A DNA stretch of 64,000 nucleotides from Leucoraja erinacea (lineage: Eukaryota), in contig NC_073391.1 of NCBI RefSeq assembly GCF_028641065.1, positions 45,818,001 through 45,882,000 of the forward strand. Reading direction: 5' to 3'. A program made the position numbers and the translations under genes. Positions 2,186 to 63,344 of this stretch are shown here, piece after piece; position 1 is the stretch's first letter; each line of letters starts with the position of its first letter. The notes under the pieces were generated by a model. That model was not told the DNA's origin, made no database searches, and saw nothing but the letters and a program-made list of their open reading frames with translations.

Positions 2186-2883
2186 CTCTCTCTGACCTAT
2201 GGCCCACCTGATTCACACCAGTTTCTCACATGTCCCTCCACCCACATTCCTTCCTCTGGCTTCACAATTGGCACCTTCTGTTTAAATCTCTTGACCTTTG
2301 TTCGAACCATCTGCCGCTCCCGTGTTCACTGATTGCCTTCCAAGCTTTGCTCTGCCCCTCCTCTCTCCCAGCTCTCTCCTCTTCCCCCCCCCCCCCCCCC
2401 CCCAATCGGTGTGCAGAATGGACCCGACCCAAAATGTCACCCATCCATGCTCTCCTGAGATACGCCTGTCCAGCTGAGTTACTCCAGCACTTTGTGTCCT
2501 TCTTTGGGATAATATAGCAGTGTGAGTGGGCGATTGATGTTCGGCGTGGAATCGGTGGGGAAAGGGACTGTTTCCATGCAGTGTCTTTCAATCGTTGAGC
2601 CGAATTGCAGGCACGTGTATAATGGGAAGTTGTGTAAACCGTGGCAAAGGAAATACAAAAATATTGCACCAGATTGATGGGAGGATATATACTGGAAGGG
2701 GCCAAATGGCCTCCCTGTGTACATTTCACGCACAGACACATTTTCGACAGAATACATTTATTAGTCACAAAGCTAGAATATTAAACTCCAGCCTTGTTAT
2801 TAACAGCCCAGTAATAGAATTAGAAACAACAGCAGAACAAACTCAGCAATGAACACCAGCAGCAACTGCAGAGTACAACTGCA

Positions 2884-3172
2884 GTCACGGTGGCGCAGCG
2901 GTTGCGTTGCTGCCTTACAGTGAATGCAGCGCCGGAGACCCGGGTTCGATCCCGATTACGGGTGCTGTCTGTACGGAGTTTGTACGTTCTCCCCGTGACC
3001 GGCATGGGTTTTTCCCCACATTCCAGACATATAAGTTTGTAGTGTAATCGGCTTGGTAAATGTAAAAATTATCCCTTGTGGGTGTAGGATAGTGTTAATG
3101 TGCGAGGATCACTGGTTGGCGAAGACCCGGTGGGCCGAAGGGCCTATTTCTGTGCTGTATCTCTAAACTAGA
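2884..3172 (+). mobile_element. tRNA-derived V-SINE (HE1-like)
   Basis: A box TGGCGCAGCGG, B box GGTTCGATCC, V-domain GGAGTTTGTACGTTCTCCCCGTG and tail GGGCCGAAGGGCCT..TCTCTAAACTA. Absent from the duplicate locus near 5405. Confidence 0.85.
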
Positions 3173-3256
3173 CCAGCAGTTACTTGTGGGCTTGCAACGG
3201 GATTCAACGACTGTGATGGTTAAACACAAAACCAAAAACTTATTAAAATTTTCCCC

Positions 3257-4306
3257 TCAGTGTGAATGTGAAATGGGAGAGGCAAATGGTTTCTCCACGG
3301 TATGAAGTCGCTGATGGGTCATCAGGTGGGAAAATCGTGTGAATCCTTTCCCACACCCAGTGCAGATGAACGGCCTCTCCCCAGTGTGAACTCTCTGGTG
3401 TCTGAGTAACGTAGATGAATGAATGAATCCCTTCCCACACTCGGAACAGGTGAACGACCTTTCCCCGGTGTGAATTTGCTGGTGTTTTATCAAGATGGTC
3501 GACCGAGTGAATCCCTTCCCACACTCAGAGCAGGTAAATGGCCTCTCCCCAGTGTGAACTAGCTGGTGGGTTTTCATGCTGGAGAACTTGGTAAATCCCT
3601 TCCCACAGGTAGAGCAGGTGAACGGCCTCTCCCCAGTATGAACTCGCTGGTGTGTCAGTAGGTCAGATGATCCAATGAATCCCTTCCCACACACAGAGCA
3701 GGTGAACGGCCTCTCCCCAGTGTGAACCCGCTGGTGTATCAGTAGCTCCGAAGATTGAATGAATCCCTTCCCACATTCAGAACAGGTGAACGGCCTCTCC
3801 CCAGTGTGAATTTGGTGGTGCCTCTTCAAATGGCATGCTTGAGTGAATCCCTTCCCACACTCGGGACAGGTAAATGGTTTCTCCTTTGTGTGAACTCGTT
3901 GGTGGGTCACCAGTTGGGAGGTATCAGTGAACCCCTGCCCACACACGGAGCAGGTGAACGGCCTCTCCCCAGTGTGAACTCGCTGGTGCCTCAGTAGCTC
4001 AGATGATCCAATGAATCCCTTCCCACACCCAGAACAGATGAACGGCCTTCCCCCGGTGTGAATTCGCTGATGTCTTTTCATGTGGATTAACTGAGCAAAT
4101 TGCTTCCCACACTCAGAACAGGTGAACGGCCTCTCCCCGGTGTGAGTTTGTCGGTGTCGATTCAGGTTGTACGTTTGAGTGAATCCCTTCCCACAATCGG
4201 GACAGACAAATGGTTTCTCCACAGGATGAACCTGCTGGTGGGGCATCAGGTGGGAAGGTTCAGTGAATCCCTGCCCATACACAGAGCTGGGGAATAATTT
4301 CTCCAT
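3257..4306 (-). CDS. C2H2 zinc-finger-only protein (ZNF-1), 11 fingers; duplicated exon with no promoter of its own
   Basis: ORF 3257..4324 has CxxC-x12-HxxxH repeats with HTGERPF linkers. First true ATG is at 4306 (agcATGg, MEKLF). Acceptor TTTTTACAG ends at 4392 and AATAAA is at 2757-2762 (minus). Confidence 0.85.
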   Translation of the reverse strand: MEKLFPSSVYGQGFTEPSHLMPHQQVHPVEKPFVCPDCGKGFTQTYNLNRHRQTHTGERPFTCSECGKQFAQLIHMKRHQRIHTGGRPFICSGCGKGFIGSSELLRHQRVHTGERPFTCSVCGQGFTDTSQLVTHQRVHTKEKPFTCPECGKGFTQACHLKRHHQIHTGERPFTCSECGKGFIQSSELLIHQRVHTGERPFTCSVCGKGFIGSSDLLTHQRVHTGERPFTCSTCGKGFTKFSSMKTHQLVHTGERPFTCSECGKGFTRSTILIKHQQIHTGERSFTCSECGKGFIHSSTLLRHQRVHTGERPFICTGCGKGFTRFSHLMTHQRLHTVEKPFASPISHSH

Positions 4307-5492: not shown

Positions 5493-7298
5493 TCAGTGTG
5501 GATGTGAACTGGGAGAGGCAAATGGTTTCTCCAAGGTGTGAACTCGCTGATGGGTCATCAGGTGGGAAAATCGTGTGAATCCTTTCCCACACCCAGTGCA
5601 GATAAACGGCCTCTCCCCAGTGTGAACTCTCTGGTGTCTGAGTAATGTAGATGAATGAATGAATCCCTTCCCACACTCGGAACAGGTGAACGACTTTTCC
5701 CCGGTGTGAATTAGCTGGTGTTTTATCAAGATGCTCGATCGAGTGAATCCCTTCCCACACTCAGAGCAGGTAAATGGCCTCTCCCCAGTGTGAACTAGCT
5801 GGTGGGTTTTCATGCTGGAGAACTTGGTAAATCCCTTCCCACAGGTAGAGCAGGTGAACGGCCTCTCCCCAGTGTGAACTCGCTGGTGTGTCAGTAGGTC
5901 AAATGATCCAATGAATCCCTTCCCACACACAGAGCAGGTGAACGGCCTCTCCCCCGTGTGAACCCGCAGATGTACCAGTAGCTCTGAAGATTGAATGAAT
6001 CCCTTCCCACACTCAGAACAGGTGAACGGCCTCTCCCCAGTGTGAATTAGCTGGTGCCTCTTCAGATGGCATGCTTGAGTGAATCCCTTCCCACACTCAG
6101 AACAGGTGAACGACCTTTCCCCGGTGTGAATTAGCTGGTGTTTCATCAAGATGGTCGACCGAGTGAATCCTTTCCCACACTCAGAGCAGGTAAATGGCCT
6201 CTCCCCAGTGTGAACTCGCTGGTGGGTTTTCATGTTGGAGACCTTGGTAAATCCCTTCCCACAAGTAGAGCAGGTGAACGGCCTCTCCCCAGAGTGAACT
6301 CGCTGGTGTGTCAGTAGGTCAGATGATCCAATGAACCCCTTCCCACACACAAAGCAGGTGAACGGCCTCTCCCCTGTGTGAACCCGCTGGTGTGTCAATA
6401 GCTCCGAAGATTGAACAAATCCCTTCCCACACTCAGAACAGGTGAACGGCCTCTCCCCAGTGTGAATTTGCTGGTGCTTCTTCAGATGCCGTGCTTGAGT
6501 GAATCCCTTCCCACACTCGGGACAGGTGAACGACCTTTCCCCGGTGTGAATTTGCTGGTGTTTCATCAAGGTGGATGACCGGGTGAATCCCTTCCCACAC
6601 TCAGAGCAGGTAAATGGCCTCTCCCCAGTGTGAACTCGCTCGTGGGTTTTCATCCTGGAGAACTTGGTAAATCCCTTTCCACAGGTAGAGCAGATGAACG
6701 GCCTTTCCTGAGTGTGAAGTCGCTGGTGTGTCAGTAGGTCAGATGATTGAATGAATCCCTTCCCACACTCAGAACAGGTGAACGGCCTCTCCCCAGTATG
6801 AATTTGCTGGTGCATCAGCAGCTCTGAAGATTGAATGAATCCCTTCCCACACTCAGAACAGGTGAACGGCCTCTCCCCTGTATGAATCTGCTGGTGCCTC
6901 TTCAGATAGCGTGTTTGCGTGAATCCCTTCCCACAATCAAGACAGGCAAATGGTTTCTCCTTAGTGTGAACTCGTTGGTGGGCCACCAGTTGGGAGGTAT
7001 CAGTGAACCCCCGCCCACACAGAGAGCAGATGAATGGCCTCTCTCCAGTGTGAACTCGCTGGTGCCTAAGTAGCTCAGATGATCCAATGAATCCCTTCCC
7101 ACACTCAGAACAGGTGAACGGCCTCTCACCGGTGTGAGTTTGTCGGTGTCGTTTCAGGTTGTAGGTTTGAGTGAATCCCTTCCCACAATCGGGACAGACA
7201 AATAGTTTCTCCACAGGATGAACCTGCTGGTGGGGCACCAGGTGGGAAGGTTCAGTGAATCCCTGCCCACACACAGAGCTGGGGAATAATTTCTCCAT
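5493..7298 (-). CDS. C2H2 zinc-finger-only protein (ZNF-2), 20 fingers
   Basis: ORF 5493..7316 with ATG at 7298 (MEKLF). Acceptor at 7384-7385, poly(A) signal at 5277-5282, and exon-1 module with donor at 10339-10340. Confidence 0.9.
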   Translation of the reverse strand: MEKLFPSSVCGQGFTEPSHLVPHQQVHPVEKLFVCPDCGKGFTQTYNLKRHRQTHTGERPFTCSECGKGFIGSSELLRHQRVHTGERPFICSLCGRGFTDTSQLVAHQRVHTKEKPFACLDCGKGFTQTRYLKRHQQIHTGERPFTCSECGKGFIQSSELLMHQQIHTGERPFTCSECGKGFIQSSDLLTHQRLHTQERPFICSTCGKGFTKFSRMKTHERVHTGERPFTCSECGKGFTRSSTLMKHQQIHTGERSFTCPECGKGFTQARHLKKHQQIHTGERPFTCSECGKGFVQSSELLTHQRVHTGERPFTCFVCGKGFIGSSDLLTHQRVHSGERPFTCSTCGKGFTKVSNMKTHQRVHTGERPFTCSECGKGFTRSTILMKHQLIHTGERSFTCSECGKGFTQACHLKRHQLIHTGERPFTCSECGKGFIQSSELLVHLRVHTGERPFTCSVCGKGFIGSFDLLTHQRVHTGERPFTCSTCGKGFTKFSSMKTHQLVHTGERPFTCSECGKGFTRSSILIKHQLIHTGEKSFTCSECGKGFIHSSTLLRHQRVHTGERPFICTGCGKGFTRFSHLMTHQRVHTLEKPFASPSSHPH

Positions 7299-10063: not shown

Positions 10064-10440
10064 TCCATGGCCGAATCTTTACCCACAACCCCACCGCGAG
10101 CCAGAAACCGGTCTATCCGTCAACGTGCTATCTTTGCGCACGCGCAGCCATGTCCGGCCGCCGTCAGCACCGTCACTGACGGGCGGGAAACTCCCTGGGG
10201 CCTGGGTGCGGAGGGAGAGGGGGAAGGACCGGCACCGTCCCCAGATGGGCGACCGTGTACCCGAGGATCGCACTGATTCTCCCCGCAGCTAGGGACCGCT
10301 CCTCAGGCAGGGACTCGGTGCTGACTGACCCTGCTCCTACCTGCCGCCGATCCTCCGGATCTTTGCTCCGGACTCTTTTGTCCACTGACCGCATGCGCGC
10401 CTTGGCCACACCACTTCCGGCTATCTGCGCATGCGCGAGA
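10064..10440 (-). promoter_or_regulatory. ZNF promoter/exon-1 module (serves ZNF-2 and possibly ZNF-1)
   Basis: Minus strand has CCGGAAGT (ETS), GCGCATGCG (NRF1-like, two copies), exon-1 sequence GGACAAAAGA..CCGGAGGATCGGCGGCAG and donor GTAGGA at 10340. Confidence 0.75.
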
Positions 10441-12835: not shown

Positions 12836-13354
12836 AGATGAATAACAGGCATGCATTTAATGGGATATTCAGTAAACAAAGGAAAAAAATACCAGAATAT
12901 TCCAACGGAGTGATCGGAGGATAAATACTGACAGACACCAGATGGGCCGAATGGTATTTCTATGTACATTCCACGCAGAGTCACAGTGTTTACAACAGAT
13001 CACATTTATTCTCAGACCCAAAATATTAAACTTCAACCCAGTTATAAAACTTACGAACAGCAGCCTACAAGCCCCAACTGTGCCCTGTGTTCATTCCTGA
13101 TTGTGATGAACACCAGCAGTAACCACAGAATCCAACAGCAGCAGTCACTTGTGGGACTTGCAACAGGATTCAGCAATTGTGACAGTTCAACACCAAACCA
13201 AAAACCTATTTAAACTATCCCCCACAGTGTGAACGCACAGGTGTGTTCACTCAGATAATCAAGTGAATCCCTTCCCCCACACTAAACAGGAGAATGCCCT
13301 TTCCCCAGATTGAATTCTCTGGTGGGTCACCTGATTAGATTTACCAGTGAAATC

Positions 13355-14566
13355 CTACCCAGAGTTGGGAGAGGCAAACGATTTTTCCACAGCGTGAACT
13401 CGCTGGTGGGTCATCAGTTGGGAAAATTGTGTGAAACCCTTCCCACACTGAGAGCAAATGATCGGCCTCTCCCCGGTGTGAATTCTCTGATGTGTTATCA
13501 TGCTGGAGAACTTGGTAAATCTCTGCCCACACTCAGTGCAAGTGAACGGCTTCTCACCAGTGTGAACTCGCTGGTGTGTCAGTAGCTCAGATGATTGAAT
13601 GAATCCCTTCCCGCACTCATAACACGTGAACGGCCTCTCTCCCCTATGAATCTGCTGGTGCCTCTTCAGATTGCATGCTCGTGTGAATCCCTTCCCACAA
13701 TCAGGACAAGCAAATGGTTTCTCCAGAGTATGAACCTGTTGGTGTGTCACCAGGTGGGAAGATTGAGTGAATCCTTGCCCACACACAGAACAGGTGAATG
13801 GCCTCTCCCCAGTGTGAACTCGCTGGTGTGTTATCATGTTGGCTAACTGAGTGAATTCCTTCCCGCACTCAGAACACGTGAACGGCTTCTCCCCAGTATG
13901 AACACGTTGATGTCTTATCATGTTGGACAATTGGGTGAATTCCTTCCCACACTCAGAGCAGGTGAAAGGCCTCTCTCCGATGTGAATTTGCTGATGAGTT
14001 ATCATGTTGGACAACTGAGTGAATTCCTTCCCACATTCAGAGCAGGAGAACGGCCTCTCCCCAGAGTGAATTTGCTGATGTGTTATCATGTTCGACAGCC
14101 GAGTGAATTCTTTCCCACACTCAGAACAGGTGAATGGCCTCTCTCCACTATGAACTCGTTGGTGTCTCAGTAGCTCAGATGGTTGAATGAATCCCTTCCC
14201 ACACTCAGAGCAGGTGAACGGCCTCTCCCCAGTGTGAATTAGCTGATGCCTCTTCAGCTGGCATGCTCGGGAGAATCCCTTCCCACAATCTAAACAGGCA
14301 AATGGTTTCTCCAGAGAGTGAACCCGTTGATGTGTAACAAGGTGGGAGGATTGAGTGAATCCTTGACCACACAGAGCGCAGGTGAACGGCCTCTCCCCAG
14401 TGTGAACTCGCTGATGCGTTATCATGTTGGACAAACGAGCAAATCCCTTCCCACACTCAGAACAGGTGAACGGCCTCTCCCCGGTGTGAATTTTCTGGTG
14501 TCTCTTCAGGCTGCATGCTTGAGTGAATCCCTTCCCACAATCAAGACATGCAAATTGTTTCTCCAT
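13355..14566 (-). CDS. C2H2 zinc-finger-only protein (ZNF-3), 14 fingers
   Basis: 403-aa ORF. Acceptor at 14771-14772 and donor at 15005-15006 define a 236-nt intron. Poly(A) signal at 13005-13010. Confidence 0.88.
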   Translation of the reverse strand: MEKQFACLDCGKGFTQACSLKRHQKIHTGERPFTCSECGKGFARLSNMITHQRVHTGERPFTCALCGQGFTQSSHLVTHQRVHSLEKPFACLDCGKGFSRACQLKRHQLIHTGERPFTCSECGKGFIQPSELLRHQRVHSGERPFTCSECGKEFTRLSNMITHQQIHSGERPFSCSECGKEFTQLSNMITHQQIHIGERPFTCSECGKEFTQLSNMIRHQRVHTGEKPFTCSECGKEFTQLANMITHQRVHTGERPFTCSVCGQGFTQSSHLVTHQQVHTLEKPFACPDCGKGFTRACNLKRHQQIHRGERPFTCYECGKGFIQSSELLTHQRVHTGEKPFTCTECGQRFTKFSSMITHQRIHTGERPIICSQCGKGFTQFSQLMTHQRVHAVEKSFASPNSG

Positions 14567-14849: not shown

Positions 14850-15225
14850 ACCCACGGGCGGGAAATTCCCCGGGGCCCAGGTGCGGAGGGAAAGGGGGGA
14901 GGACCGGCACCGTCCTCAGGTGATGTGGACCCGAGGGCAGCCGGGGGCCGCTCCTCAGGCCGGGCCTCGGTGCTGACTGATCCCGCGCCCGGATCCCCGC
15001 TCCTACCCGCCGCCGATCCTCCGGAGTCTTTTGTCCACGGACCGCATGCGCGCCTTGGCAGCTCCTCTGGTATCTTTGGGCAGCACCACTTCCGGGGCTC
15101 TGCGCGCTTGGTATCGTCTGCAACAAAGACCCTAAGATCTTTGGTCTGCTACATAGGGCGAGTTCTGGGGCGCGGAGGTTTCTGGGCAATAAGGTCGCCA
15201 TAGAAATAATCTGAAATCACCGGCC
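14850..15225 (-). promoter_or_regulatory. ZNF promoter/exon-1 module (ZNF-3)
   Basis: Same conserved module, with donor at 15006 and ETS motif at 15088-15095. Confidence 0.78.
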
Positions 15226-19556: not shown

Positions 19557-20017
19557 GTCCCACCCCCTCTCCTGACATCAGTCTGAAGAAGGGTCTCGAC
19601 CCGAAATGTCACTCAATCCTTAACCCCACAGATGCTGCCTGACCTGCTGAGTTACTCCAGCACTTTGTGTCTACCACTGGGTTGTAAGCTATCCAATGCA
19701 AAATCAAGTCAAGTCAAGTTTATTCGTCACATACACATACGAGATGTGCAGTGAAATGAAAAGTGGCAATGCCCGCGGACTTTGTTCAAAAAAACAAACA
19801 AACAACCAGACAAACTACAAACAGAATGAAACAGAATCACATATTCTTTTACATATTGAATATTGTGGGCGGAAGGAAAAATGGAAAAAAAACAGCAATT
19901 AAAAAAAAAGCAGTAAAGTTAGTCCCTGGTGTAGTACCTCCCAATTTTCGTGTGGCTGCGGGGAGGCCCAGGGGAGAAATATCGGTTTGGGATGGGGACT
20001 TCAAGTAGTTAGGTTAC

Positions 20018-20430
20018 AGATCATTTCCATGGCGCCCTCTTTACCCAAAAACCTCCGCGCCCCAGAACTCGCCCTATGTTGCAGCCGATACCAAGCGCGC
20101 AGGCGCGGGGCCAAGGCGCGCATGCGGTCAATGGACAAAAGACCCCGGAGGATCGGCGGCGGGTAGGAGCGGGGATCCGGGCGCGGGATCAGTCAGCACC
20201 GAGGCCCGGCCTGAGGAGCGGCCCCCGGCTGCGGGGAGAATCGGTGCGGCCCCCGGCTGCGGGGAGAATCGGTGCGGTCCCCGGTGGCGTGAGCGCAGCG
20301 AATGCACGGCGGCGGATAGACCGGTTTCTCGCTCCCGGGGGCTTGTGGGCAAAGAGGCGGCCATGGGTAACACGCCGGCGCTTCACTGCCGATCCGTAGA
20401 GGGTTTTTGAGAGCGCAAACCTGGATCTCC
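20018..20430 (+). promoter_or_regulatory. ZNF promoter/exon-1 module (ZNF-4)
   Basis: CCATGGCGCC, TTTACCCAAAAACCTCCGCG, GCGCATGCG and donor at 20163. The ETS box is deleted in this copy. Confidence 0.78.
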
Positions 20431-21093: not shown

Positions 21094-22893
21094 ATGGAGA
21101 CATTATCCACCAGCTCCCAGTGTGGGCAGGGATTCGCTCAATCTCCCCACCTGGTAACTCTCCAGCAAGACCAGGCTGTGGAGAGACCATTTACATGTCC
21201 TAATTGTGGGAAGGAATTCACTCAAGCGTGGAACATGAAGAGACACCAGCAAATTCACACCGGGGAAAGGCCATTCACCTGCTCTGAGTGTGGGAAGGGA
21301 TTCACTAATTCTTCCAATCTTATGGCCCACCAGCGGGTTCACACTGGGGAGAAACCGTACATCTGTCCTACCTGTGGAAAGGCATTCACTTGGTTACGGT
21401 CCCTGGTGGTCCACCAACAAGGTCCCCCTGGGGAGAAGCAATTTACCTGCTCCGACTGTGGGAAGGGATTTCACCACTTATCGGGTCTGCGGACACACCA
21501 GCGGATTCACACTGGGGAGAGGCCATTCACCTGTTCTGACTGTGGCAAGGGATTTACTCAATCATCTGGTCTACGGACACACCAGCGGATTCACACTGGG
21601 GAGAGGCCATTTATTTGTTCTGAGTGTGGCAAGGGATTTACACAATTTATTCGACTTCAGTTACACCAGCGAGTTCACACTGGGGAGAGGCCATTCACCT
21701 GTTCCGAGTGTGGGAAGGCATTTACTCAATCATCGAACCTCAGGGCACACTATCAAATTCACACTGGGGAGAAGCCATTTACCTGCTCTGAGTGTGGGAG
21801 GGGATTTACTCAATTATCTGTACTACAGAAACACCAGCGACTTCATGCTGGGGAGAGGCCGATTACCTGCTCTGAGTGTGGGAAGGGATTCATTGACTCA
21901 TCGGCTTTGCAGATACACCAGAGAATTCACATGGAGGTGGGGCCATTCACTTGTTCAGAGTGTGGGAAGGGATTCACTCATTCATCTGTATTACAGAGAC
22001 ATCACAGAATTCACACCGGAGAGAGGCCATTCACCTGTTCTGAGTGCGGGAAGGGATTCACTCAAGCAAGCAACCTGAAGAGGCACCTGCTAATTCACAC
22101 CGGGGAGAAGCCGTTCACCTGCTCTGAGTGTGGGAAGGGATTTACTGAATTATCTGGACTGCAGATACACCAGCGGATTCACACTGGGGAGAAGCCATTC
22201 GCCTGTTCGGAGTGTGGGAAGGGATTTACTGATTTATCTGGACTGCAGAAACACCAGCGGAGTCACACCGGGGAGAGGCCGTACATCTGCTCTGAGTGTG
22301 GGAAGAGATTCATTCATTCATCTGCGTTACAGAGACACTACAGAATTCACACCGAGGACAAGCCATTCACCTGTTGTGAGTGTGGGAAGGGATTCATTCA
22401 AGCATGCAACTTGAAGAGGCACCAGCTAACTCACAACGGGGAGAGGCCGTTCACCTGCTCTGCGTGTGGGAAGGGATTCACCCATTCATCTGCGTTACAG
22501 AGGCACCTCAGAACTCACACCGGGGAGAAGCCATTCACCTGCTCTGAGTGTGGGAAGGGATTCAGTCAATCATCTGCATTACTGGCTCACCAGAAGATTC
22601 ACACTGTGGATAGGCTATTCACCTGTTCTGAGTGTGGGAAGGGATTCATTCAATTATCCAAGCTACAGGCACACCAGCGAATACACATGAGGGAGATGCA
22701 ATTTATTTGTTCCGTGTGTGGGAAGGGATTTACTCAATTATCTGGGCTACAAACACACCAGCGAATTCACACTGGGGAGAGGCCGTTCACCTGCTCTGAG
22801 TGTGGGAAGGGATTCACTCAATCTTCCCACCTGGTGACCCATCAGGGAATTCACAGCGTGGATAAATCATTTGCCTCTTCCAACTGTGGGTAG
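21094..22893 (+). CDS. C2H2 zinc-finger-only protein (ZNF-4), about 20 fingers (one degenerate)
   Basis: ORF 21031..22893 with first ATG at 21094 (agcATGg). Acceptor AG at 20970-20971, donor at 20163, AATAAA at 23171-23176. Confidence 0.9.
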   Translation: METLSTSSQCGQGFAQSPHLVTLQQDQAVERPFTCPNCGKEFTQAWNMKRHQQIHTGERPFTCSECGKGFTNSSNLMAHQRVHTGEKPYICPTCGKAFTWLRSLVVHQQGPPGEKQFTCSDCGKGFHHLSGLRTHQRIHTGERPFTCSDCGKGFTQSSGLRTHQRIHTGERPFICSECGKGFTQFIRLQLHQRVHTGERPFTCSECGKAFTQSSNLRAHYQIHTGEKPFTCSECGRGFTQLSVLQKHQRLHAGERPITCSECGKGFIDSSALQIHQRIHMEVGPFTCSECGKGFTHSSVLQRHHRIHTGERPFTCSECGKGFTQASNLKRHLLIHTGEKPFTCSECGKGFTELSGLQIHQRIHTGEKPFACSECGKGFTDLSGLQKHQRSHTGERPYICSECGKRFIHSSALQRHYRIHTEDKPFTCCECGKGFIQACNLKRHQLTHNGERPFTCSACGKGFTHSSALQRHLRTHTGEKPFTCSECGKGFSQSSALLAHQKIHTVDRLFTCSECGKGFIQLSKLQAHQRIHMREMQFICSVCGKGFTQLSGLQTHQRIHTGERPFTCSECGKGFTQSSHLVTHQGIHSVDKSFASSNCG

Positions 22894-23957: not shown

Positions 23958-24110
23958 CGAACGCTGAGCCGGTGATTTCAGATAACTGCCATGGCGCCTT
24001 CTTTACCCAGAAACCTCCGCGCCCCAGAACTCACCCTATGTTGCAGGCGACAACAAGCGCGCAGGCGCGGAGAGACCCCAAGCCGCGCATGCGGACAGAA
24101 GACTCCGGAG
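23958..24110 (+). promoter_or_regulatory. Truncated promoter module (ZNF-5) lacking the exon-1 donor
   Basis: The module is conserved up to GACTCCGGAG, then fuses to the intron-3' conserved block (cccaggcagaaggcgagggcttgttcc). Confidence 0.7.
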
Positions 24111-42705: not shown

Positions 42706-44070
42706 ATGGAACAGGCAGAGCATTTGTTAACGGGATTCTCAAACGGAGTCACTGTGTCAACTGAGCCGACCAGACGCCAGATAGTTCACAGCATGGATAA
42801 ATTATTCACCAGCTCGCAGTGTGGGCAGGGATTCACTCAATCTTCCCACCAGGTGGCCCACCAGCAAGATGAAACTGTGGTGAAACCACTTGCCTGTTCC
42901 GATTGTGGGAATGGATCCACTCAAGCAAGCCATCTGAAGGGACACCAGCAAATTCACACCTGCTTCGAGTGTGCAAAGAGGTTCACTAATTCTTCCAGTC
43001 TGGTGGCCCACCAACGGATTCACACTGGAGAGAAACCATTTGCCTGTCCCGATTGTAGGAAGTCATTCTCTCGAGCAAACAACCTCCAAATGCACCAGCG
43101 ACTCCACACCGGAGAGAGGCCGTTCATATGTTCTGAGTGCGGGAAGGGATACATTCAATCCACTGATCTACTGAGGCACCAGCAGGTTCACACTCGGGAC
43201 AGGCCGTTCACCTGTTGTGAGTGTGGGAAGGGATTCATTCATGCATACCACCTGAAGAGGCACCAGCTAACTCACACCAGGGAGAGGCCATTCACCTGCT
43301 CTGAGGGTGGGAAGGGATTCACTCAATCTTCCACCCTGGAGACCCATCAACGAATTCACAGCGTGGAGGGACTGTTCACCTGTTGTGAGTGTGGGAAGGG
43401 ATTCAATCAATCCACTCAGCTACTGAGACACCAGCAGGTTCACAATGGGGACAGGCCGTTCACCTGTTCTAAGTGTGGGAAGGGATTCACTCGCTTATCC
43501 AGCATGACAATCCACCAGAGAATTCACACCGGGGAGGGACTGTTCACCTGTTGTGAGTGTGGGAAGGGATTTACTCTAGCAAGCAGACTGAAGAGGCACC
43601 AGCTAACTCACAGTGGGGTGAGGCCATTCATCTGCTCTGAGTGTGGGAAAGGATTCGCCAATTCATCTCAGTTACTGAGGCACTTCAGTATTCACACCGA
43701 AGAGAAGCCATTCACCTGCTCTGCGTGTGGGATGGGATTCAGACAATCAAATGCATTACTGGCTCACCAGAAGATTCACACTCTGGACAGGCTATTCACC
43801 TGTTCTGTGTGTGGGAAGGGATTTCAATATTTTTCATGGCTACAAACACACAAGCGAATTCACACTGGGGAGAGACCGTTCACGTGTTCTGTGTGTGGGA
43901 AGGGATATCCTAAATTATGTGGGCTAAAGATACACGAACGAATTCACACCGGGGAGAGGCCGTTCATCTGCTCTGGGTGTGGGAAGGGATTCGCTCATTC
44001 TTCCAACCTGCGGACCCATCTCCGAATTCACAGGGTGCGTAAATCATTTGCCTCTTCCAACTGTGGGTAG
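42706..44070 (+). CDS. C2H2 zinc-finger-only protein (ZNF-8), 14 finger units (one is CSEG, degenerate)
   Basis: 454-aa ORF. Acceptor at 42703-42704, donor at 41077, AATAAA at 44352-44357. The GERPFT linker is deleted in frame between fingers 1 and 2. Confidence 0.87.
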   Translation: MEQAEHLLTGFSNGVTVSTEPTRRQIVHSMDKLFTSSQCGQGFTQSSHQVAHQQDETVVKPLACSDCGNGSTQASHLKGHQQIHTCFECAKRFTNSSSLVAHQRIHTGEKPFACPDCRKSFSRANNLQMHQRLHTGERPFICSECGKGYIQSTDLLRHQQVHTRDRPFTCCECGKGFIHAYHLKRHQLTHTRERPFTCSEGGKGFTQSSTLETHQRIHSVEGLFTCCECGKGFNQSTQLLRHQQVHNGDRPFTCSKCGKGFTRLSSMTIHQRIHTGEGLFTCCECGKGFTLASRLKRHQLTHSGVRPFICSECGKGFANSSQLLRHFSIHTEEKPFTCSACGMGFRQSNALLAHQKIHTLDRLFTCSVCGKGFQYFSWLQTHKRIHTGERPFTCSVCGKGYPKLCGLKIHERIHTGERPFICSGCGKGFAHSSNLRTHLRIHRVRKSFASSNCG

Positions 44071-46374: not shown

Positions 46375-46715
46375 GAACGCCGAGTCGGTGATTTCATGTC
46401 ACTTCCATGGCGCCCTCTTTACCCAGAAACCTCCGCGCCCCATAATTCGCCCTATGTTGCAGGCCAGATACCCAGCGCGCAGGCGCGGTGAGACCCGGAA
46501 GTGGGTGCGGCCAAGGCGCGCATGCGGTCCGTGGACAAAAGACTCCGGAGGATCGGCGGCGGGTAGGAGCGGGGATCCGGGCGCGGGATCAGTCAGCACC
46601 GAGGCCCCGGCCTGAGGAGCGGCCCCCGGCTGCGGGGAGAATCGGTGCGGCCCGTTAGTGACGTACCTGGCGGCGGATGGCCCTGGTGGCGCATGCGCAT
46701 CGGCTGCACGATGAC
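46375..46715 (+). promoter_or_regulatory. ZNF promoter/exon-1 module (ZNF-9)
   Basis: Full motif set, donor at 46563. Confidence 0.78.
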
Positions 46716-47971: not shown

Positions 47972-49918
47972 ATGGCCCACCAGCAAGTTCTCGCTGTGGA
48001 GAAACCATTTGTCTCTCCCGATTGTGGGAAAGGATTCACTCAAGCAAACAACCTGAAGAAACACCAGCAAATTCACACCGGAGAGAGGCCGTTCGTCTGT
48101 TCTGAGTGTGGGAAGGGATTCATTCACCCATCTCAGCTGCTGATACACCAGCGAGTGCACACCGGAGAGAGGCCATTCATCTGTTCTGAGTGCGGGAAGG
48201 GATTCATTCAATCATCTGAGCTGCGGATACACCAGCGAGTTCACACCGGGGAGAGGCCATTCACCTGCTCAGAGTGTGGGAATGGATTCACTAAGTCTTC
48301 CAGTCTGGTGATCCACCAACGGATTCATACTGGAAATAAACCATTTGCCTGTCCCGATTGTGGGAAAGCATTCACTCAAGCTGGCCATCTGAGGAGGCAC
48401 CAGCTAATTCACACCGGGGAGAAGCCCTACACCTGCTCTGAATGTGGGAAGGGATTTACTCGTTTCTCCTACATGATAACACATCAGCAAAGTCACAGCG
48501 GTGAGAGGCCATTCACTTGCTCTGATTGTGGGAAGGGTTTTATTTCTGCCGCTGTCTTAATGAAACACCAGCTAATTCACACAGGGGAGAGGCCATTCAC
48601 CTGCTCTGAATGCGGGAAGGGGTTCACTGAATCGTATATGTTAGTGAGACACCAGAGAATGCACACCGAGGAGAGGCCGCTTACCTGTTTCGAGTGTGGG
48701 AAAGGATTTATATATTTATCTCAGCTACAGTCACATCAGCGAATTCACACTGGGGTGAGGCCGTTCACTTGTTCTGTGTGTGGGAAGGGATTCACTGGGT
48801 TGTTGCACCTTCAAAGACATGAGCGAGTTCACACTGGAAAGAAACCATTTGCCTGTCGTGATTGTGGGAAGGCTTTCACTCAATCTAGCCATCTGATGAG
48901 GCACCAGAAAATTCATACAGGGGAGAGGCCGCACACCTGTTCTGAGTGCGGGAAGGGATTCATTCAATCATCTGAGCTGCGGATACACCAGCGAGTTCAC
49001 ACCGGGGAGAGGCCGTTCACCTGCTCAGAGTGTGGGATTGGATTCACTAAGTCTTCCAGTCTGGTGATCCACCAACGGATTCACACTGGAAATAAACCAT
49101 TTGCCTGTCCCGATTGTGGGAAAGCATTCACTCAAGTTGGCCATCTAAGGAGGCACCAGCTAATCCACAGCGGGGAGAGGCCGTACACCTGCTCTGAGTG
49201 TGGGAAGGGATTTACTCAGTTGTCCTCCATGATAACACATCAGCACAGTCACAGCGGTGAGAGGCCATTCACTTGCTCTGATTGTGGGAAGGGTTTCATT
49301 TCTGCCGCTGCCTTAATGAGACATCAGCGAATTCACACAGGGGAGAGGCCATTCACCTGCTCTGAATGCGGGAAGGGGTTCACTGAATCGCACATGTTAG
49401 TGAAACACCAGAGAATACACACCGGGGAGAGGCCGTTTGCCTGTTTCGAGTGTGGGAAGGGATTTATACGTTTATCTCAGCTACAGTCACACCTGCGAAT
49501 TCATACTGGGGAGAGGCCGTTCACTTGTTCTGTGTGTGGGAAGGGATTCACTGTGGTGTCCGACCTTAAAAGACATGAGCGAGTTCACACTGGAAAGAAA
49601 CCATTTGCCTGTCCCGATTGTGGGAAGGCATTCACTCAATCTAGCCATCTGATGAGGCACCAGCTAATTCATATTTGGAAGAGGCCGTCCACTTGTTCTG
49701 TGTGTGAGAAGGGATTTAGTCAACTACATGAGCAACAATCACACCAGCAAATTCACACTGGGGAGAGGCCGTTCACTTGTTCGGTATGTGGGAAGGGATT
49801 CACTAACTCTACCAATTTGGTGGCCCCCCAGCGGGTGCACACTGGGGAGAAACCGTTCATCTGTCCTACCTATGGAAAGGGATTCACTCAGTTACCCTCC
49901 TTAGTAAAACACCAATGA
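47972..49918 (+). CDS. C2H2 zinc-finger-only protein (ZNF-9), about 20 intact fingers of 23 units
   Basis: ORF 47903..49918 with first ATG at 47972. Acceptor at 47884-47885, donor at 46563, AATAAA at 50147-50152. Confidence 0.87.
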
Positions 49919-51379: not shown

Positions 51380-51910
51380 GGATCAAAACTGTTGCAGAAC
51401 CACGGCAGTTTTTGTTAAAATTTCCCACGCCATGAAATGTTTTGACTTTCACCAATAAGTCAACATATCGCTTGTATGCTGAGACTCCACACAAGAGAAT
51501 CGAGTGGCTGTTTGGGAAACGCAGAGCCATTAATATCCGAACAGTTCCATGGCGCCCATCTTACCCAGAAACCTCCGCGCCGCAGAACTCGCCCTATGTT
51601 GAAGGCGATACCGAGCGCGCAGGCGCGGAGAGCCCGGAAGTGGTGCGGCCAAGGCGCGCATGCGGTCCGCGGAAAAAAGACTCCGGAGGATCGGCGGCGG
51701 GTAGGAGCGGGGATCCGGGCGCGGGATCAGTCAGCACCGAGGCCCCGGCCTGAGGAGCGGCCCCCGGTTGCGGGGAGAATCGGTGCGGTCCCCGGGGACA
51801 CGGTGCTGGCGGCATCTGGCCCTGGTGGCGCATGCGCATCGGCTGCACGATGACGCATAGACCGGTTTCTGCCTCATTAGGGGTTGTGGGTAAAGAGGCG
51901 GCCATTGATA
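51380..51910 (+). promoter_or_regulatory. ZNF promoter/exon-1 module (ZNF-10)
   Basis: Full motif set, donor at 51701. Confidence 0.78.
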
Positions 51911-53028: not shown

Positions 53029-53787
53029 ATGCGATTCACTCAACCTTCTCACCTGATGGCCCACCAGCAAGTTCTCGCTGTGGAGAAACCATTTGTCTGT
53101 CCCGATTGTGGGAAAGGATTCACTCAAGCAAGCAACCTGAAGAGGCACCAGCATATTCACACCGGGGCGAGGCCGTTCATCTGTTCTGAGTGCGGGAAGG
53201 GATTCACTCGTATGTCCAATATGATAACACATATGAGAGTTCACACTGGGGAGAGGCCGTTCACTTGTTCCGAGTGTGGGCAAGGATTCACTCAGTTAGC
53301 CAACATGATAACCCACCAGCGAGTCCACACTGGGGAGAGGCCGTTCACCTGCGCTGTGTGTGGGCAAGGATTCACTCAATCTCCCCACCTGGTGACACAT
53401 CAACGGATTCACACTCAGGAGAAGCCATTTGCCTGTCCTGATTGTGGGAAAGACTTCTCCCGTGCATGCCAGCTGAAGAGGCACCAGCAAGTCCACACCG
53501 GAGAGAGGCCGTTCATCTGTTCTGATTGCGGGAAGGGATTCATTCAATCATCTGACCTACTGAGACACCAGCAGGTTCACACTGGGGAGAGGCCGTTCGC
53601 CTGTTCTGAGTGTGGGAAGGAATTCACTCGTTTGTTCAACATGATTATGCACCAGAGAATTCACACCGGGGAGAGACTGTTCATCTGTTCTCAGTGTGGG
53701 AAGGGATTCACACAATTTTCCCACCTGGTGACCCACCAGCAGGTTCACGCCATGGAGAAACCAGAGGCCTCTCCCAACTGTGGGTAG
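53029..53787 (+). CDS. C2H2 zinc-finger-only protein (ZNF-10), 8 fingers
   Basis: 252-aa ORF. Acceptor at 52968-52969, donor at 51701. The conserved poly(A) element was not found downstream. Confidence 0.83.
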   Translation: MRFTQPSHLMAHQQVLAVEKPFVCPDCGKGFTQASNLKRHQHIHTGARPFICSECGKGFTRMSNMITHMRVHTGERPFTCSECGQGFTQLANMITHQRVHTGERPFTCAVCGQGFTQSPHLVTHQRIHTQEKPFACPDCGKDFSRACQLKRHQQVHTGERPFICSDCGKGFIQSSDLLRHQQVHTGERPFACSECGKEFTRLFNMIMHQRIHTGERLFICSQCGKGFTQFSHLVTHQQVHAMEKPEASPNCG

Positions 53788-55999: not shown

Positions 56000-56830
56000 T
56001 TGGATCACAATTGTTGCAGAACCACAATATTACAGTTCAAAATTCTCACCCCTTCGATGTGTTTTAATTTGCACAAATAAGTCATCGTGTCGCTTGAGGG
56101 GGCTAGCTGTGTTAAATTGTCTCCCGGGTCTCCGCACAAAAAGACCAAGTGGCTGCCGTCCGTTGGGAAACAGTTGAGCCGGTGATTTCAGATTATTTCC
56201 ATGGCGTCGTTTTTACCCAGAAACATCCGCGCTTCAGAACTCGCCCTATGTTGCAGGCGATACCAAGCGCGCAGGCGCGGAGAGACCCAAGGCGCGCATG
56301 CGGTCCGTGGACAAAAGACTCCGGAGGATCGGCGGCGGGTAGGAGCGGGGATCCGGGCGCGGGATCAGTCAGCACCGAGGCCCCGGCCTGAGGAGCGGCC
56401 CCCGGCTGCGGGGAGAATCGGTGCGGACCCCGGGGATTCACTGCCGAACCGCAGAGCGTTTTGAGGATCTCGCTGCCGTCTGGAGAGTCTGATCAGTGGA
56501 GGCGAGGAACTGCAGATGCTGCTTTACAACAAAGTGCAGGAGGAACGCAGCCGGTGCAGAGACGCTGCCTGAACCGCTGCCTCAGTCCTGCAATGTGCGA
56601 CTTACTTTGGTATAAAACCAACACCTGCAGTTCCTTTATTGCTTCAAAAGACTCCGGGGGGTCGGCGGCGGGTGGGAGCGGGGATCCGGGCGCGGGATCA
56701 GTCAGGGCCGAGGCCCCGGCCCCCGTCTGCGGGGAGAATCGGTGGCCTGGTGCATCGACGGCACCGTGCACGGATAGACACGTTTCTGGCTCGCTGTGGA
56801 CGCTGGGTAAAATAGCGGCCATGGATAGTC
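56000..56830 (+). promoter_or_regulatory. ZNF promoter/exon-1 module with duplicated exon-1 end (upstream of ZNF-11)
   Basis: Donor at 56339. A second copy of caaaagactccgg..ggcggcgg|gtggga lies at about 56645-56745. Confidence 0.72.
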
Positions 56831-60310: not shown

Positions 60311-60982
60311 TGAGATGCAGATGGTGTGTTTCTTTCCGGTTGTTTTATTTGCGGTTGATATTTGTGGCGTTAAGAGTTCGATGGTGGGTGAGGTTAAGTG
60401 AAAAACCGGATGAGAGTGTTTCGCATTTGTTTGACCGATTTAATCGTCTACAGTTTCATTTATTTAGCAGATACTGATACTTGAAAAGGAGGCGTAGTCC
60501 TCTTTCTTACGGTTTGGCTTTCTTCCCAACTAATCGTTCAAGCGCTTTTGGTTGCAACATGCGCCTTCATTTAGTTCAACAAAGAAACTAACAAGTTACT
60601 AAAGGTTTTCAAGAAGGAACTGCAGATGCTGGAAAATCGAAGGTACACAAAAAATGCTGGAGAAACTCAGCGGGTGCAGCAGCATCTATGGAGCGAGGGA
60701 AATAGGCAACGTTTCGGGCCGAAACCCATCTTCAGACTAAAGTTACTTAAGGTGGTGCCGTCAGGTACTGAGGGGGGTGGTTTTAGGATGCCAGAACTAA
60801 CTGCAGAGGTATTGTGAGCCTAACTGAACTTAGTGTTTTAATTGCAATTGTGACCTCTTTCTACAGGGTAGAACAAGCAGAGGATTTGTGCACCAGAATC
60901 TCAACGTGTCCAGTTCACCAGCCACCTGCTGGGGCGGATTGACAGATTCGGCTGAGCCAGCGAGACGCCAGAGGGTTACTGC

Positions 60983-62728
60983 ATGGAGAAATTATTCACC
61001 AGCTCCGAGTGTGGGCAGGGATTCACGCCCAGCTCTGACAGCGGCCAGGGATTCACGCAATCCTCCCACATGGTCCGCCAAGTGCAGCAACAGGCTTTGG
61101 GGAAGCCATTTACCTGTCCCGACTGTGGGAAGGGATTCACTCAAGCCTACAACCTGAAGACGCACCGGCGAACTCACACCGGGGAGAGGCCGTTCACCTG
61201 CGCCGAGTGCGGGAAGGGATTCACCAACTCCTCCGGCCTGGTGGCCCACCAGCGGATCCACACCGGGGAGAAGCCGTTCATGTGTCCCACCTGCGGGAAG
61301 GGCTTCATCCGCTTGCACTCCCTGGAGATCCACCAACAGGTGCACCCTGGGGAGAAGCCGTTCACCTGCTCGGACTGCGGGAAGGGATTTGTCCAGTTGT
61401 CTGGGCTGCAGACACACCAGCGGATCCACACCGGAGAGAGGGCATTCACCTGCTCTGAGTGTGGCAAGGGGTTCACCCACTCCTCCAGGCTGCTGATCCA
61501 CCAGCGGATTCACACCGGGGAGAGACCCTTCACTTGTTCTGAGTGCGGGAAGGGATTCATTCAATTGTCGACTCTCCGGTCCCACTTCCAAATTCACACC
61601 GGGGAGAGGCCGTTCACCTGCTCCGTGTGCGGCAAGGGCTTCATCCAATCGTCAAACCTCAGGTCACACTATCAAATACACACCGGGGAGAGGCCATTCA
61701 TCTGCTCTGAGTGTGGCAAGGGATTTTCACGATTGTGCTCGCTGCAGTTGCACCAGCGACTTCACACTGGGGAGAAGCCATTTACCTGCCCCGAGTGCGG
61801 GAAGGGGTTTATTCAATTGTCGAGTCTCACCTCGCACTACCGGACACACACCGGGGAGAGGCCTTTCATCTGCTCCGTGTGCGGGAAGGGCTTTTTTCAA
61901 TTGTCGAACCTCCGATCGCACTATCAAATCCACTTTGGGGAGAAATCTTTCCCCTGTTCCGTGTGTGGGAAGAGATTTCACCACTTGTCCGGCCTACAGA
62001 AACACCAGCGGATTCACACCGGGGAGAGGCCGTTCACCTGCTCCGAGTGCGGCAAGGGATTCACTCAATTATCTATACTGCAGAAGCACCGGCGGCTTCA
62101 CACTGGGGAGAAGCCATTCACCTGCTCTCAGTGTGGGAAGGGATTCGTTGACTCACCTGCTTTGCAGATACACCAGAGAGTTCATACGGGGGAGCGACCA
62201 TTCACCTGTTCTGAGTGTGGGAAGGGATTCACTCAATCGTCGACTTTACTGGGGCATCTGAAGATTCACACGGGAGAGAAGCCATTCACCTGCTCCGAAT
62301 GCGGGAAGGGATTCACTCAAGCCGGCAACCTGAAGAGGCACGAGCGGATTCACACCGGGGAGAAGCCGTTCACCTGCTCTGAGTGCGGGAAGGGATTCAC
62401 TCATTCATCGGCGGTATTGAGACACCAGAGAACTCACACTGGGGAGAGGCCATTCGTCTGCTCTGATTGTGGCAAGGGATTCACTCAATTGTCCAGCATG
62501 TTAATACATCAGCGCATTCACACTGGAGAGAGGCCGTTCACCTGCTCTGAGTGCGGGAAGGGCTTCATTCATTCATCGGCGTTACTGAGACACCAGAGAA
62601 TTCACACTGGGGAGAGGCCGTTCACCTGCTCTGATTGTGGGAAAGAATTCAGACAATCTCACACCCTGAAGATCCACCAGCGAGTTCACGCTGTGGAGAA
62701 ATCATTTGCCTCTCCCAACTGTGGGTAG
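60983..62728 (+). CDS. C2H2 zinc-finger-only protein (ZNF-11), 19 fingers
   Basis: 581-aa ORF. Acceptor at 60865-60866, nearest donor at 56339, AATAAA at 63008-63013. Confidence 0.9.
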   Translation: MEKLFTSSECGQGFTPSSDSGQGFTQSSHMVRQVQQQALGKPFTCPDCGKGFTQAYNLKTHRRTHTGERPFTCAECGKGFTNSSGLVAHQRIHTGEKPFMCPTCGKGFIRLHSLEIHQQVHPGEKPFTCSDCGKGFVQLSGLQTHQRIHTGERAFTCSECGKGFTHSSRLLIHQRIHTGERPFTCSECGKGFIQLSTLRSHFQIHTGERPFTCSVCGKGFIQSSNLRSHYQIHTGERPFICSECGKGFSRLCSLQLHQRLHTGEKPFTCPECGKGFIQLSSLTSHYRTHTGERPFICSVCGKGFFQLSNLRSHYQIHFGEKSFPCSVCGKRFHHLSGLQKHQRIHTGERPFTCSECGKGFTQLSILQKHRRLHTGEKPFTCSQCGKGFVDSPALQIHQRVHTGERPFTCSECGKGFTQSSTLLGHLKIHTGEKPFTCSECGKGFTQAGNLKRHERIHTGEKPFTCSECGKGFTHSSAVLRHQRTHTGERPFVCSDCGKGFTQLSSMLIHQRIHTGERPFTCSECGKGFIHSSALLRHQRIHTGERPFTCSDCGKEFRQSHTLKIHQRVHAVEKSFASPNCG

Positions 62729-63344
62729 GGCTGCACTGATAACGTTCAAATTGGTGACCCACCATAGAATTCACACTGGGGAGAGTGGCATTCACCTGTC
62801 TACTGTGTGGCAAGGGATTCACTTGATTATCTGAGCAGTTCACACACCAGCTCGTTCACGATTGGGGAGGGGGTGAGGGGGGTAGTGGAGTTTAATGAAG
62901 TGTTTGATTTGGTGTTTAGCCATTGCCCAGGGGCGCAGTTGGGATTTGTTCTGCAATTGTTTGTAATGCCTATAACTGCTAGAATTTAATGTCTTGGATC
63001 TGTGACAAATAAATTGTTAACCCTGTATCTCTCTGCATGGCGATGTATATAGAGAGGTCATTCGGTCTTTCCCCTCTGATGATTCTTATGGATTATTCTT
63101 GTGTTTCTTCTTCCTTTGTTTAGTCCGGGAAGGGTGGGTGAAAACTGTCTTTGGTTAATGAGTCTGATAGTTCAAATGTAGCTGTATCTCTAAACTAAGC
63201 TCTCCCTCCACACCCAGTCATCTGCCCTGAGCATCAAGTGGGGTGAACCATCATCGAGCTCGCCATCATCAGATGTAACTGTCCCAGTCAGCGCATGCGC
63301 ATGATTGCTCAGTGACGGCTTGACTGCTTTCAGGTTCTGGGTAA

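Follow-up and report, generated by a model that had tools for sequence, protein, structure and literature searches.

A probable young, lineage-specific cluster of finger-only C2H2 genes without an upstream effector exon in Leucoraja erinacea

Introduction

Do the clustered zinc-finger genes at this locus encode fingers and nothing else, and what keeps and diversifies such genes? KRAB-domain families are reported to have been lost from, or never present in, cartilaginous fishes (PMC8455134, PMC11603059). Large chondrichthyan finger repertoires are already counted in print: five rows of Supplemental Data 1 of PMC10547256 give 315 to 1223 open reading frames (ORFs) with at least five fingers in chondrichthyan assemblies. 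A preliminary description of the locus read it as an amplified cassette whose genes may recognize transposons without an N-terminal effector domain. Here, the 64,000-nucleotide stretch of DNA that was analysed is referred to as the window.

Results

Eleven ORFs made of fingers

The window contains 11 intact ORFs, all of them finger genes, and no array is interrupted by a stop or a frameshift (Z1 to Z11; Table 1). They encode 153 canonical Cx2Cx12Hx3H C2H2 fingers, 8 to 20 per ORF, covering 78 to 97% of each ORF, which bears out the 11 finger-only ORFs described before. PF00096 and PF13465 were present in 11/11, and every ORF combines Cx2Cx12Hx3H fingers with TGEKP-type linkers, as in the tandem poly-C2H2 class. 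The wide variation described at the base-contacting helix positions was also seen, with 109 distinct fingerprints at -1, 2, 3 and 6 among the 153 fingers. The family to which the cluster belongs probably has hundreds of members, the window holding one cluster of them.

Table 1. Coordinates of the finger genes and their associated elements in the window
Gene	Feature	Position	Strand	Details
Z1	ORF	3257..4306	-	349 aa, 11 fingers; acceptor 4391; without its own exon-1 module
Z2	ORF	5493..7298	-	601 aa, 20 fingers, internal 5-finger repeats; acceptor 7383
Z2	Promoter/exon-1 module	10253..10438	-	most divergent module; predicted donor after 10341
Z3	ORF	13355..14566	-	403 aa, 14 fingers; acceptor 14770; start is a later linker-derived Met
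Z3	Module	14923..15215	-	predicted donor after 15007; intron 236 bp
Z4	Module	20016..20251	+	predicted donor after 20162
Z4	ORF	21094..22893	+	599 aa, 19 fingers; acceptor 20972; leader is a decayed finger, frameshifted
Z5	Truncated module	23977..24110	+	promoter boxes retained, donor deleted, fused to intron-end sequence
Z5	ORF	25370..26602	+	410 aa, 12 fingers; acceptor 25362; mosaic, 5' Z7-like, 3' Z6/Z8-like
Z6	Module	29193..29461	+	predicted donor after 29357
Z6	ORF	31472..32251	+	259 aa, 8 fingers; acceptor 31384; leader with short in-frame upstream ORF
Z7	Module	36190..36437	+	predicted donor after 36337
Z7	ORF	37549..38526	+	325 aa, 9 fingers; acceptor 37541
Z8	Module	40919..41180	+	predicted donor after 41076
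Z8	Exon-1/donor core (example)	41031..41136	+	-45 to +60 around donor
Z8	ORF	42706..44070	+	454 aa, 13 fingers; acceptor 42705; finger frame open there, phase 2
Z9	Module	46393..46659	+	predicted donor after 46562
Z9	ORF	47972..49918	+	648 aa, 20 canonical fingers, 9-finger internal duplication; acceptor 47886; frame open, phase 1
Z10	Module	51536..51804	+	predicted donor after 51700
Z10	ORF	53029..53787	+	252 aa, 8 fingers; acceptor 52970; without conserved poly(A) block
Z11	Module	56187..56439	+	predicted donor after 56338
Z11	ORF	60983..62728	+	581 aa, 19 fingers; acceptor 60867
Z11	3' block	62854..63076	+	contains AATAAA
	3' blocks homologous to that of Z11	2684-2919, 5204-5443, 12938-13170	-
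	3' blocks homologous to that of Z11	23017-23203, 26726-26964, 32543-32769, 39094-39334, 44195-44432, 49981-50227	+

Gene anatomy

The claim that each gene has a promoter and an exon 1 with a donor held for 9/11 genes, which carry one complete module each, oriented toward the gene; Z1 has none, the module of Z5 ends before the donor, and the donor of Z2 reads CAG|GTAGGA. Z1 is a 93% identical tandem copy of the intron end and exon 2 of Z2, and may use the exon 1 of Z2 or be silent. The exon-1/donor core (approximately 100 bp) is 95 to 100% identical among eight genes (Z3, Z4 and Z6 to Z11); the acceptor regions of the same eight are mostly 65 to 80% identical. CpG observed/expected ratios were 0.80 to 1.12 in the modules versus 0.48 in the rest. 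All six ETS boxes of the window and 21 of its 26 NRF1-type boxes lie at most 330 bp from a donor, as sequence matches to consensus strings. The modules resemble, by the concentration of such consensus matches, CpG-island promoters of the GABP/NRF1/YY1/ZNF143 kind, a motif set reported as enriched in human bidirectional promoters (PMC3082894). No Rfam match to a structured RNA was found in the window, and the core folded no better than its shuffles (z=+1.16). An imperfect inverted repeat flanks the Z4 module, and its arms resemble paired factor-binding boxes.

As for splicing, which is predicted here, GT and AG were present at all seven junctions listed previously (15007/14770, 20162/20972, 29357/31384, 36337/37541, 41076/42705, 46562/47886 and 51700/52970), and two were added, 10341/7383 (Z2) and 56338/60867 (Z11). 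The module donor agrees with the splice consensus at only 6/9 positions, and 5 of the 14 matches to GGGTAGGA are stop-codon contexts, not donors. The acceptor TTTTACAG, ascribed earlier to every gene, is exact in 9/11 and inexact in the other two, and a strong main acceptor is kept in 11/11. Likewise, the 3' motif TCTGTGACAAATAAAT (10 matches versus 0.06 expected by chance) is exact in 6/11 rather than in all genes, within a wider poly(A) block present in 10/11 and missing in Z10. The introns had been called transposon filled, which does not fit the short intron of Z3 or the mid-part of the Z8 intron, single-copy in the window.

The start Met occupies the glycine position of a finger linker, that of an old finger, and the ORF is bordered upstream and downstream by decayed fingers; hence, the proteins consist only of fingers and finger remnants. 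Finger remnants are also present in the untranslated regions. Aligned with the finger consensus, the leader scored above all 300 shuffles in two of the four genes tested, and not in Z5 and Z11. A language-model look-up of the decayed N-terminal finger returned C2H2 clusters only, a model-based lead, and searching with the Z8 leader for homologues yielded no relative. A Met at the linker position also occurs in two Heterodontus proteins.

Selection on the fingers

Contact residues are the fastest-evolving class. Their dN/dS was 0.99 (about 0.7 to 1.4) in 48 collinear pairs, 1.06 to 1.10 (p 0.3 to 0.5) on all-site trees and 0.98 to 0.99 with a separate synonymous rate for contact codons, the unbiased settings together giving 0.98 to 1.10. 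Linkers evolved at 0.33 to 0.48 and, with TGE[KR]P exact in 89/139 internal linkers and at most one mismatch in 124/139, their near invariance had been overstated. Other scaffold positions gave 0.49 to 0.71 and structural residues 0.05 to 0.07, a value very low partly by construction because a finger had to have its C and H intact to enter the count. Contacts and linkers differed at p<1e-16. Contact residues are far above linkers and not above neutral, and the fold and linkers are kept by selection. A greedy nearest-finger estimate of dN/dS was discarded, its pairing being a source of bias.

These values bear on the proposal that the cluster is an arms-race repertoire that recognizes and silences transposons without an effector domain, its contacts being under positive selection. 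The high rank of the contacts agrees with it, as does the correlation, reported across animals irrespective of accessory domain, between finger-gene number and retroelement content (PMC10547256). Contact dN/dS reached 1.32 (p=0.002), and 1.47 at positions -1 and 3, only when contact codons were left out of tree building, a biased setting, and the excess was gone once these codons were given a separate synonymous rate. There was marginal support (p=0.046) for a mixture model that includes a positive class, and a mean near 1 may conceal mixed selected and constrained sites. Nevertheless, that class was not enriched in contacts (1/192, versus 6/1152), and 18 of the 48 duplicate pairs retained the same fingerprint. 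The positive selection anticipated at the contacts was not recovered; the arms-race reading is not supported by these data, and we regard it as rather unlikely.

A contact dN/dS of about 1 would also suit a mostly neutral amplification, in which the 84-bp repeat arrays and the shared module drive unequal crossing-over, copies arise and are lost and selection only purges misfolded or truncated products. Dead-copy debris (16352-16677, ~28940-29032 and 39492-39900), the lack of a promoter at Z1 and the lack of a donor at Z5 point the same way. However, all 11 long ORFs are uninterrupted, purifying selection acts on the linkers and on the scaffold outside the contacts and the promoters are still CpG islands, so we consider this explanation quite improbable.

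Search for an upstream effector exon

In 9/11 genes a stop closes the finger frame at the conserved acceptor, and the two with an open frame differ in phase (Z8, phase 2; Z9, phase 1). Neither KRAB, SCAN, BTB and zf-AD nor a SET domain of the PRDM9-like type was matched in the 370 upstream sense-strand stop-free stretches, a Pfam scan covering those of at least 36 aa and thus larger than FiNZ-sized exons. PF01352 was absent from the 11 ORFs (for nine of them, among the best 25 families), and SCAN, BTB and zf-AD were absent from the families listed. A hidden coding exon 1 was rejected because the phase in which the module ATGs arrive at the donor is not constant; for the conserved ATG of the CCATGGCG box it is 0, 1 or 2, with stops in 2/8. 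The frame from the exon-1 ATG, said before to stop early in exon 2, does so in Z3 and Z4 (ATG at -41), but in Z9 the spliced frame is open into the fingers. By frame logic rather than a FiNZ profile, no coding first exon with an acidic 28-aa domain was recognized, and the N-terminal segments of 30 to 44 aa have only three acidic residues. Sub-threshold matches were taken as chance, among them those of module frames to a bee-venom peptide family (14 to 18 bits against a cut-off of 25). The decayed N-terminal finger was discarded as a cryptic effector, its dN/dS of 0.70 being indistinguishable from 1 (p=0.14, eight sequences). With the frame closed in 9/11 and the upstream stretches devoid of KRAB, SCAN and BTB, the absence of an N-terminal effector exon is supported more strongly than in the preliminary description.

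Overlooked small N-terminal exons are described as a recognised source of apparently domain-free finger genes (PMC2604467), and a short or distant coding exon might join a secondary acceptor before the start Met, making a FiNZ-like two-exon gene. An AG|CATG abutting that Met indeed has an open frame and a common phase (phase 2) in 7/11 genes. However, this AG is missing in Z3, Z9, Z10 and Z11, the region upstream is purine-rich with a poor pyrimidine tract (0.31 to 0.44 versus 0.62 to 0.75) and the strong upstream acceptor is never lost. Moreover, the intronic sequence common to most genes is limited to the module downstream arm, the pre-acceptor block and repeats, and the Z3 intron has only 236 bp. 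Such an exon is very improbable.

Separate histories of modules and exons

Block duplication and recombination have visibly reshuffled the finger arrays, leaving mosaics and internal repeats, and the 5' and 3' trees mutually reject each other (the 3' distances of Z2 and Z9, not positionally homologous to the others, were not relied on). The cassettes were not copied cleanly as whole units; the histories of modules, 5' ends and 3' ends differ. Of the single cassette described for all genes, the tandem amplification of a promoter-plus-exon unit stands, with the full module in nine genes. Module distances are star-like, 7 to 12% among Z4 and Z6 to Z11 versus mostly 18 to 26% for exon-2 starts; in the recent pairs Z6/Z8 and Z9/Z10 the modules are the more divergent (binomial p<1e-3). 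These distances, and the inverted repeat at Z4, would be accounted for if the module were a mobile or often-copied element placed independently before finger exons and younger than them, but each full module occurs once per gene in gene orientation, its homology fades gradually at both ends without abrupt termini, the inverted arms were found in one of five regions searched and resemble paired factor-binding boxes, the exon-2 tree is not rejected by the module alignment (AU p=0.19) and conversion or unequal crossing-over accounts for these distances as well, which makes this reading highly unlikely.

Discussion

We conclude that the finger-only C2H2 genes at this locus probably form a young, lineage-specific cluster that evolves by birth and death. 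In sequence, a complete gene shows a CpG-island promoter followed by a short non-coding exon 1, a single intron and a single coding exon, with splicing and expression as predicted features. Translation starts at the linker-position Met to give fingers and finger remnants, and new specificities come from finger-block duplication, recombination between neighbours and approximately neutral contact change. From what is known of the family, sequence-specific DNA binding is the most likely activity of the proteins; repeats are perhaps their likeliest targets, a tentative view drawn from other expanded finger families. Any effect would presumably run through site occupancy or cofactors held by the fingers, not a KRAB-type domain. 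ZNF512 and ZNF512B are not known to carry KRAB and are conserved, low-copy proteins with dispersed fingers. Both are described as finger proteins on repeats that recruit SUV39H (PMC13537249), and they are, by analogy, a possible model for silencing by finger-only proteins.

Finger style bears out the chondrichthyan character of the cluster: among 231 named proteins, chondrichthyan ones took ranks 1 to 3 and four of the top five, led by a Hemitrygon protein at 81%, and the other four ranked 10, 18, 48 and 58. Only eight chondrichthyan proteins are among the matches listed, because tetrapod proteins dominated the whole-protein searches, and PF01352 was found in none of these eight, several of which are fused gene models. 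None of 10 proteins looked up was present in the protein collection, and a profile search, which ranked long multi-finger proteins by finger count, was uninformative on relatives. No description of this finger-only family was found in the literature outside subscription journals.

The cluster shares with tetrapod KRAB clusters, as characterized in PMC2604467 and PMC2443715, the tandem arrangement, a single finger exon, TGEKP-type linkers, variable -1/2/3/6 positions and gain and loss of finger blocks. In contrast, it has no KRAB exon, the fingers being unreachable from an upstream exon at the main acceptor in 9/11 genes, and no counterpart of the strong positive selection at KRAB-cluster contact sites was detected. 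KRAB proteins repress through TRIM28; the TRIM genes of the host lie outside the window. The cyprinid FiNZ genes of zebrafish chromosome 4 also form a lineage-specific cluster with a two-exon layout and a 5' region alike among paralogues; one morpholino is reported to fit 447/684 of them (PMC10547256), and a 5' UTR morpholino more than 200 (PMC11620358). Their first coding exon, however, is an acidic 28-aa domain, whereas exon 1 here has no consistent frame. PRDM9-like genes differ by their upstream PR/SET domain and by a homogeneous finger array, the fingers here having many distinct fingerprints. Finally, domain-free poly-zinc-finger predictions occur in every species surveyed in PMC2604467, where, in the account given, the annotation gap is left open, whereas here the gene anatomy argues that the absence is real.

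A broader proposal is that sharks and rays run a large finger-only recognition system that silences or stabilises repeats via finger-bound cofactors, the core being a selected family-wide switch that also supplies homology for reshuffling promoters and arrays. We hold it to be improbable and speculative; if it were true, a single antisense reagent on the core could knock down the whole family. The shared core in any case makes family-wide knock-down directly testable. Considered without its targets, this would be a well-documented example of a familiar kind of cluster. It is also a concrete case, with respect to the mis-annotation question raised in PMC2604467, where anatomy says that the effector is really absent. 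If repeats are silenced by these proteins, repression must run through the fingers, and the cluster would bear on finger-based repeat control before KRAB.

Cluster anatomy

Eleven long open reading frames made only of C2H2 fingers (Z1 to Z11) lie in the window, three on the minus and eight on the plus strand. They hold 153 canonical fingers (8 to 20 per gene), with 109 distinct fingerprints, that is, combinations of residues at the base-contacting helix positions -1, 2, 3, and 6. The preliminary description placed every gene in the same cassette, with nearly invariant linkers and introns filled with transposable elements, and each of these claims holds in part. All 11 genes retain a conserved acceptor block, and ten of them an AATAAA-containing poly(A) block, but the exact strings proposed recur in nine genes at the acceptor and in six at the 3' end. 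The full promoter/exon-1 module, always oriented towards its own gene, accompanies nine of the eleven. Z1 is without it and is a tandem duplicate of the intron end and exon 2 of Z2 (93% identity over the 711 bp 5' of the ORF); in Z5, a deletion fused the promoter to intron-end sequence, with loss of the donor. Of 139 linkers, 89 are exact and 124 deviate at no more than one position. The fraction of each intron middle occupied by repeats that have another copy in the window lies between 0 and 0.93.

Rearrangement is evident from a 9-finger internal duplication in Z9, 5-finger repeats in Z2, and the mosaic Z5, whose 5' end is Z7-like and whose 3' end resembles Z6/Z8. Eight ORFs (Z3 to Z8, Z10, and Z11) share an identical 12-amino-acid tail at the beginning of a decayed finger, the stop occupying the position of the lysine that follows CG. 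The surrounding debris includes a non-LTR set with a 394-amino-acid reverse-transcriptase frame and numerous 3' fragments, some of them 95 to 97% mutually identical, which indicates recent activity.

Coordinates of debris, mobile elements, and accessory features around the finger genes
Feature	Position	Strand	Location	Details
Insertion, 1.3 kb	29537-30846		Z6 module, downstream arm	terminal inverted repeats, 8-bp target duplication; resembles hAT-type DNA transposons
GC-rich tandem array, 30 bp	30151-30681		inside the Z6-module insertion	along with YY1-like boxes
Remnant, 20 bp	~15123-15145	minus	Z3 module	both termini as in the Z6-module insertion, flanked by 8-bp repeats; probably a footprint or mini-copy of that element
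Orphan 3' end of a deleted finger gene	16352-16677	plus		finger remnants, poly(A) block
Z5/Z7-type exon-2 start fragment	~28940-29032		upstream edge of Z6 module	joined directly
Decayed module	39492-39900		~1.2 kb 5' of Z8 module	both outer arms, without core
Non-LTR retrotransposon fragments	27322-28503, 34700-35291			copies near 15730-16217, 18990-19556, 23232-23765, 45625-46160, 63343-63903
Minisatellite, 30 bp	8281-8882		Z2 intron	~21 copies
GC-rich, CpG-rich stretch	41330-42350		Z8 intron	GCT run; no second copy within the window
Partial second core copies	20572-20601, 36947-36997, 56645-56744		introns of Z4, Z7, Z11, respectively	two longer ones ~84% identical to the primary core
Imperfect inverted repeat (73%)	20027-20077 / 20316-20366		brackets Z4 module	suggests a symmetric, possibly bidirectional promoter
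Donor-like GGGTAGGA	25270-25277		Z5, 90 bp 5' of acceptor	could stand in for the deleted donor

Evidence for the absence of an N-terminal effector

Four lines of evidence indicate that an effector is genuinely missing from Z1 to Z11, as the preliminary description had proposed in denying a hidden N-terminal exon. An upstream coding exon can join the finger frame solely via an acceptor. At the conserved acceptor, this frame is closed by stops in 9/11 genes and the two open genes require differing phases, an argument independent of the nature of the upstream exon. Likewise, no KRAB, SCAN, BTB, or zf-AD match was found in 370 stop-free sense-strand stretches of at least 36 amino acids between the genes, where the sole matches above the curated cut-off were fragments of retrotransposon type and a single low-complexity repeat. 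Moreover, the ATGs of exon 1 reach the donor in phases that are inconsistent between genes. Finally, judged by their sequence, the non-finger parts of the proteins are finger debris: in Z3 and Z4, alignment of the leader with the finger consensus outscores every shuffle (in Z5 and Z11 it does not), the start methionine occupies the glycine position of a finger linker, and decayed fingers extend beyond most stop codons. Such a start within a linker was seen in 2/8 chondrichthyan and 1/223 other named proteins. There are three loopholes: an AG immediately 5' of the start methionine, without a pyrimidine tract, leaves the frame open and in a single phase in 7/11 genes; the spliced frame of Z9 is open from ATGs 5' of the promoter boxes; and an effector exon could be shorter than 36 amino acids.

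Selection on the fingers

Codon models that we fitted to a tree of the full set of 153 fingers gave dN/dS values of 0.05 for structural residues (in part an effect of how the fingers were selected), 0.33 to 0.39 for linkers, and about 0.5 for the other scaffold. Contact residues gave 1.06 to 1.10, far above linkers (p<1e-16) and not different from 1 (p 0.3 to 0.5). A tree built without contact codons raised the contact value to 1.32 (p=0.002), a design that biases contact changes upward; with the contact codons' own synonymous rate it fell to 0.99. The same value, 0.99 (profile range ~0.7 to 1.4), came from 48 collinear duplicate pairs. A mixture model reached marginal significance (p=0.046), its selected sites not being enriched at contact positions; the estimates have limited power, and the trees are blurred by recombination. 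The pattern therefore indicates that the proteins are kept by selection, positive selection on specificity not being demonstrated.

The promoter module and its core

The module copies are CpG islands (observed/expected 0.80 to 1.12 vs 0.48 elsewhere) and concentrate boxes that, by consensus patterns, we take to be NRF1-, ETS-, ZNF143-, and YY1-like. The same motif set is described for human bidirectional promoters (PMC3082894). Four GT dinucleotides are aligned in most copies; the donor proposed earlier alone is present in 9/9 and has the best consensus fit (6/9 positions), making it our best guess for the predicted exon-1 donor.

The core, about 100 bp across this donor including 60 intronic bases, is 95 to 100% identical among Z3, Z4, and Z6 to Z11, an unexpected contrast with their acceptor regions, which are mostly 65 to 80% identical. 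No unusual RNA structure of the core was found. Stray core fragments have decayed to ~84%, a hint that the primary copies may be under selection. A comparable shared 5' region is reported for zebrafish chromosome-4 finger genes (PMC11620358, PMC10547256). The wider modules are 7 to 12% apart with a star-like tree, and in the recent pairs Z6/Z8 and Z9/Z10 they diverge more than the exon-2 starts; module and exon histories therefore differ, suggesting conversion or unequal crossing-over. The module alignment, too uninformative here, does not reject the exon-2 tree (AU p=0.19).

Relatives and proposed mode of action

Among 231 named proteins (nine unnamed entries left out), the most similar fingers were those of Hemitrygon (81%), Heterodontus, and Scyliorhinus, which identifies the host as a cartilaginous fish and most probably a batoid. 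A look-up in the protein collection returned none of the ten proteins searched (all except Z9). Z1 to Z11 resemble KRAB- or FiNZ-type clusters in layout and turnover, but belong to neither class. KRAB families are reported absent from chondrichthyans (PMC8455134), large chondrichthyan finger repertoires have been counted (315 to 1223 ORFs each in five of the assemblies; PMC10547256), and domain-free finger genes are known generally (PMC2604467). No description of the gene anatomy of this family appeared among the literature listings searched.

The cluster is real, and its function is a proposal. A shared housekeeping-type promoter would most likely drive a two-exon transcript whose sole product is the finger array. 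These arrays probably bind DNA, with family-wide variety arising through recombination and relaxed contact-residue change. By analogy, repeats would be the likeliest targets, because across animals finger-gene number tracks retroelement load irrespective of accessory domain (PMC10547256). Any silencing would require site occupancy or cofactors bound by the fingers, as reported for ZNF512/512B with SUV39H (PMC13537249). New here are the evidence of true effector absence, the origin of the start codon in a finger linker, and the near-invariance of the exon-1 core.
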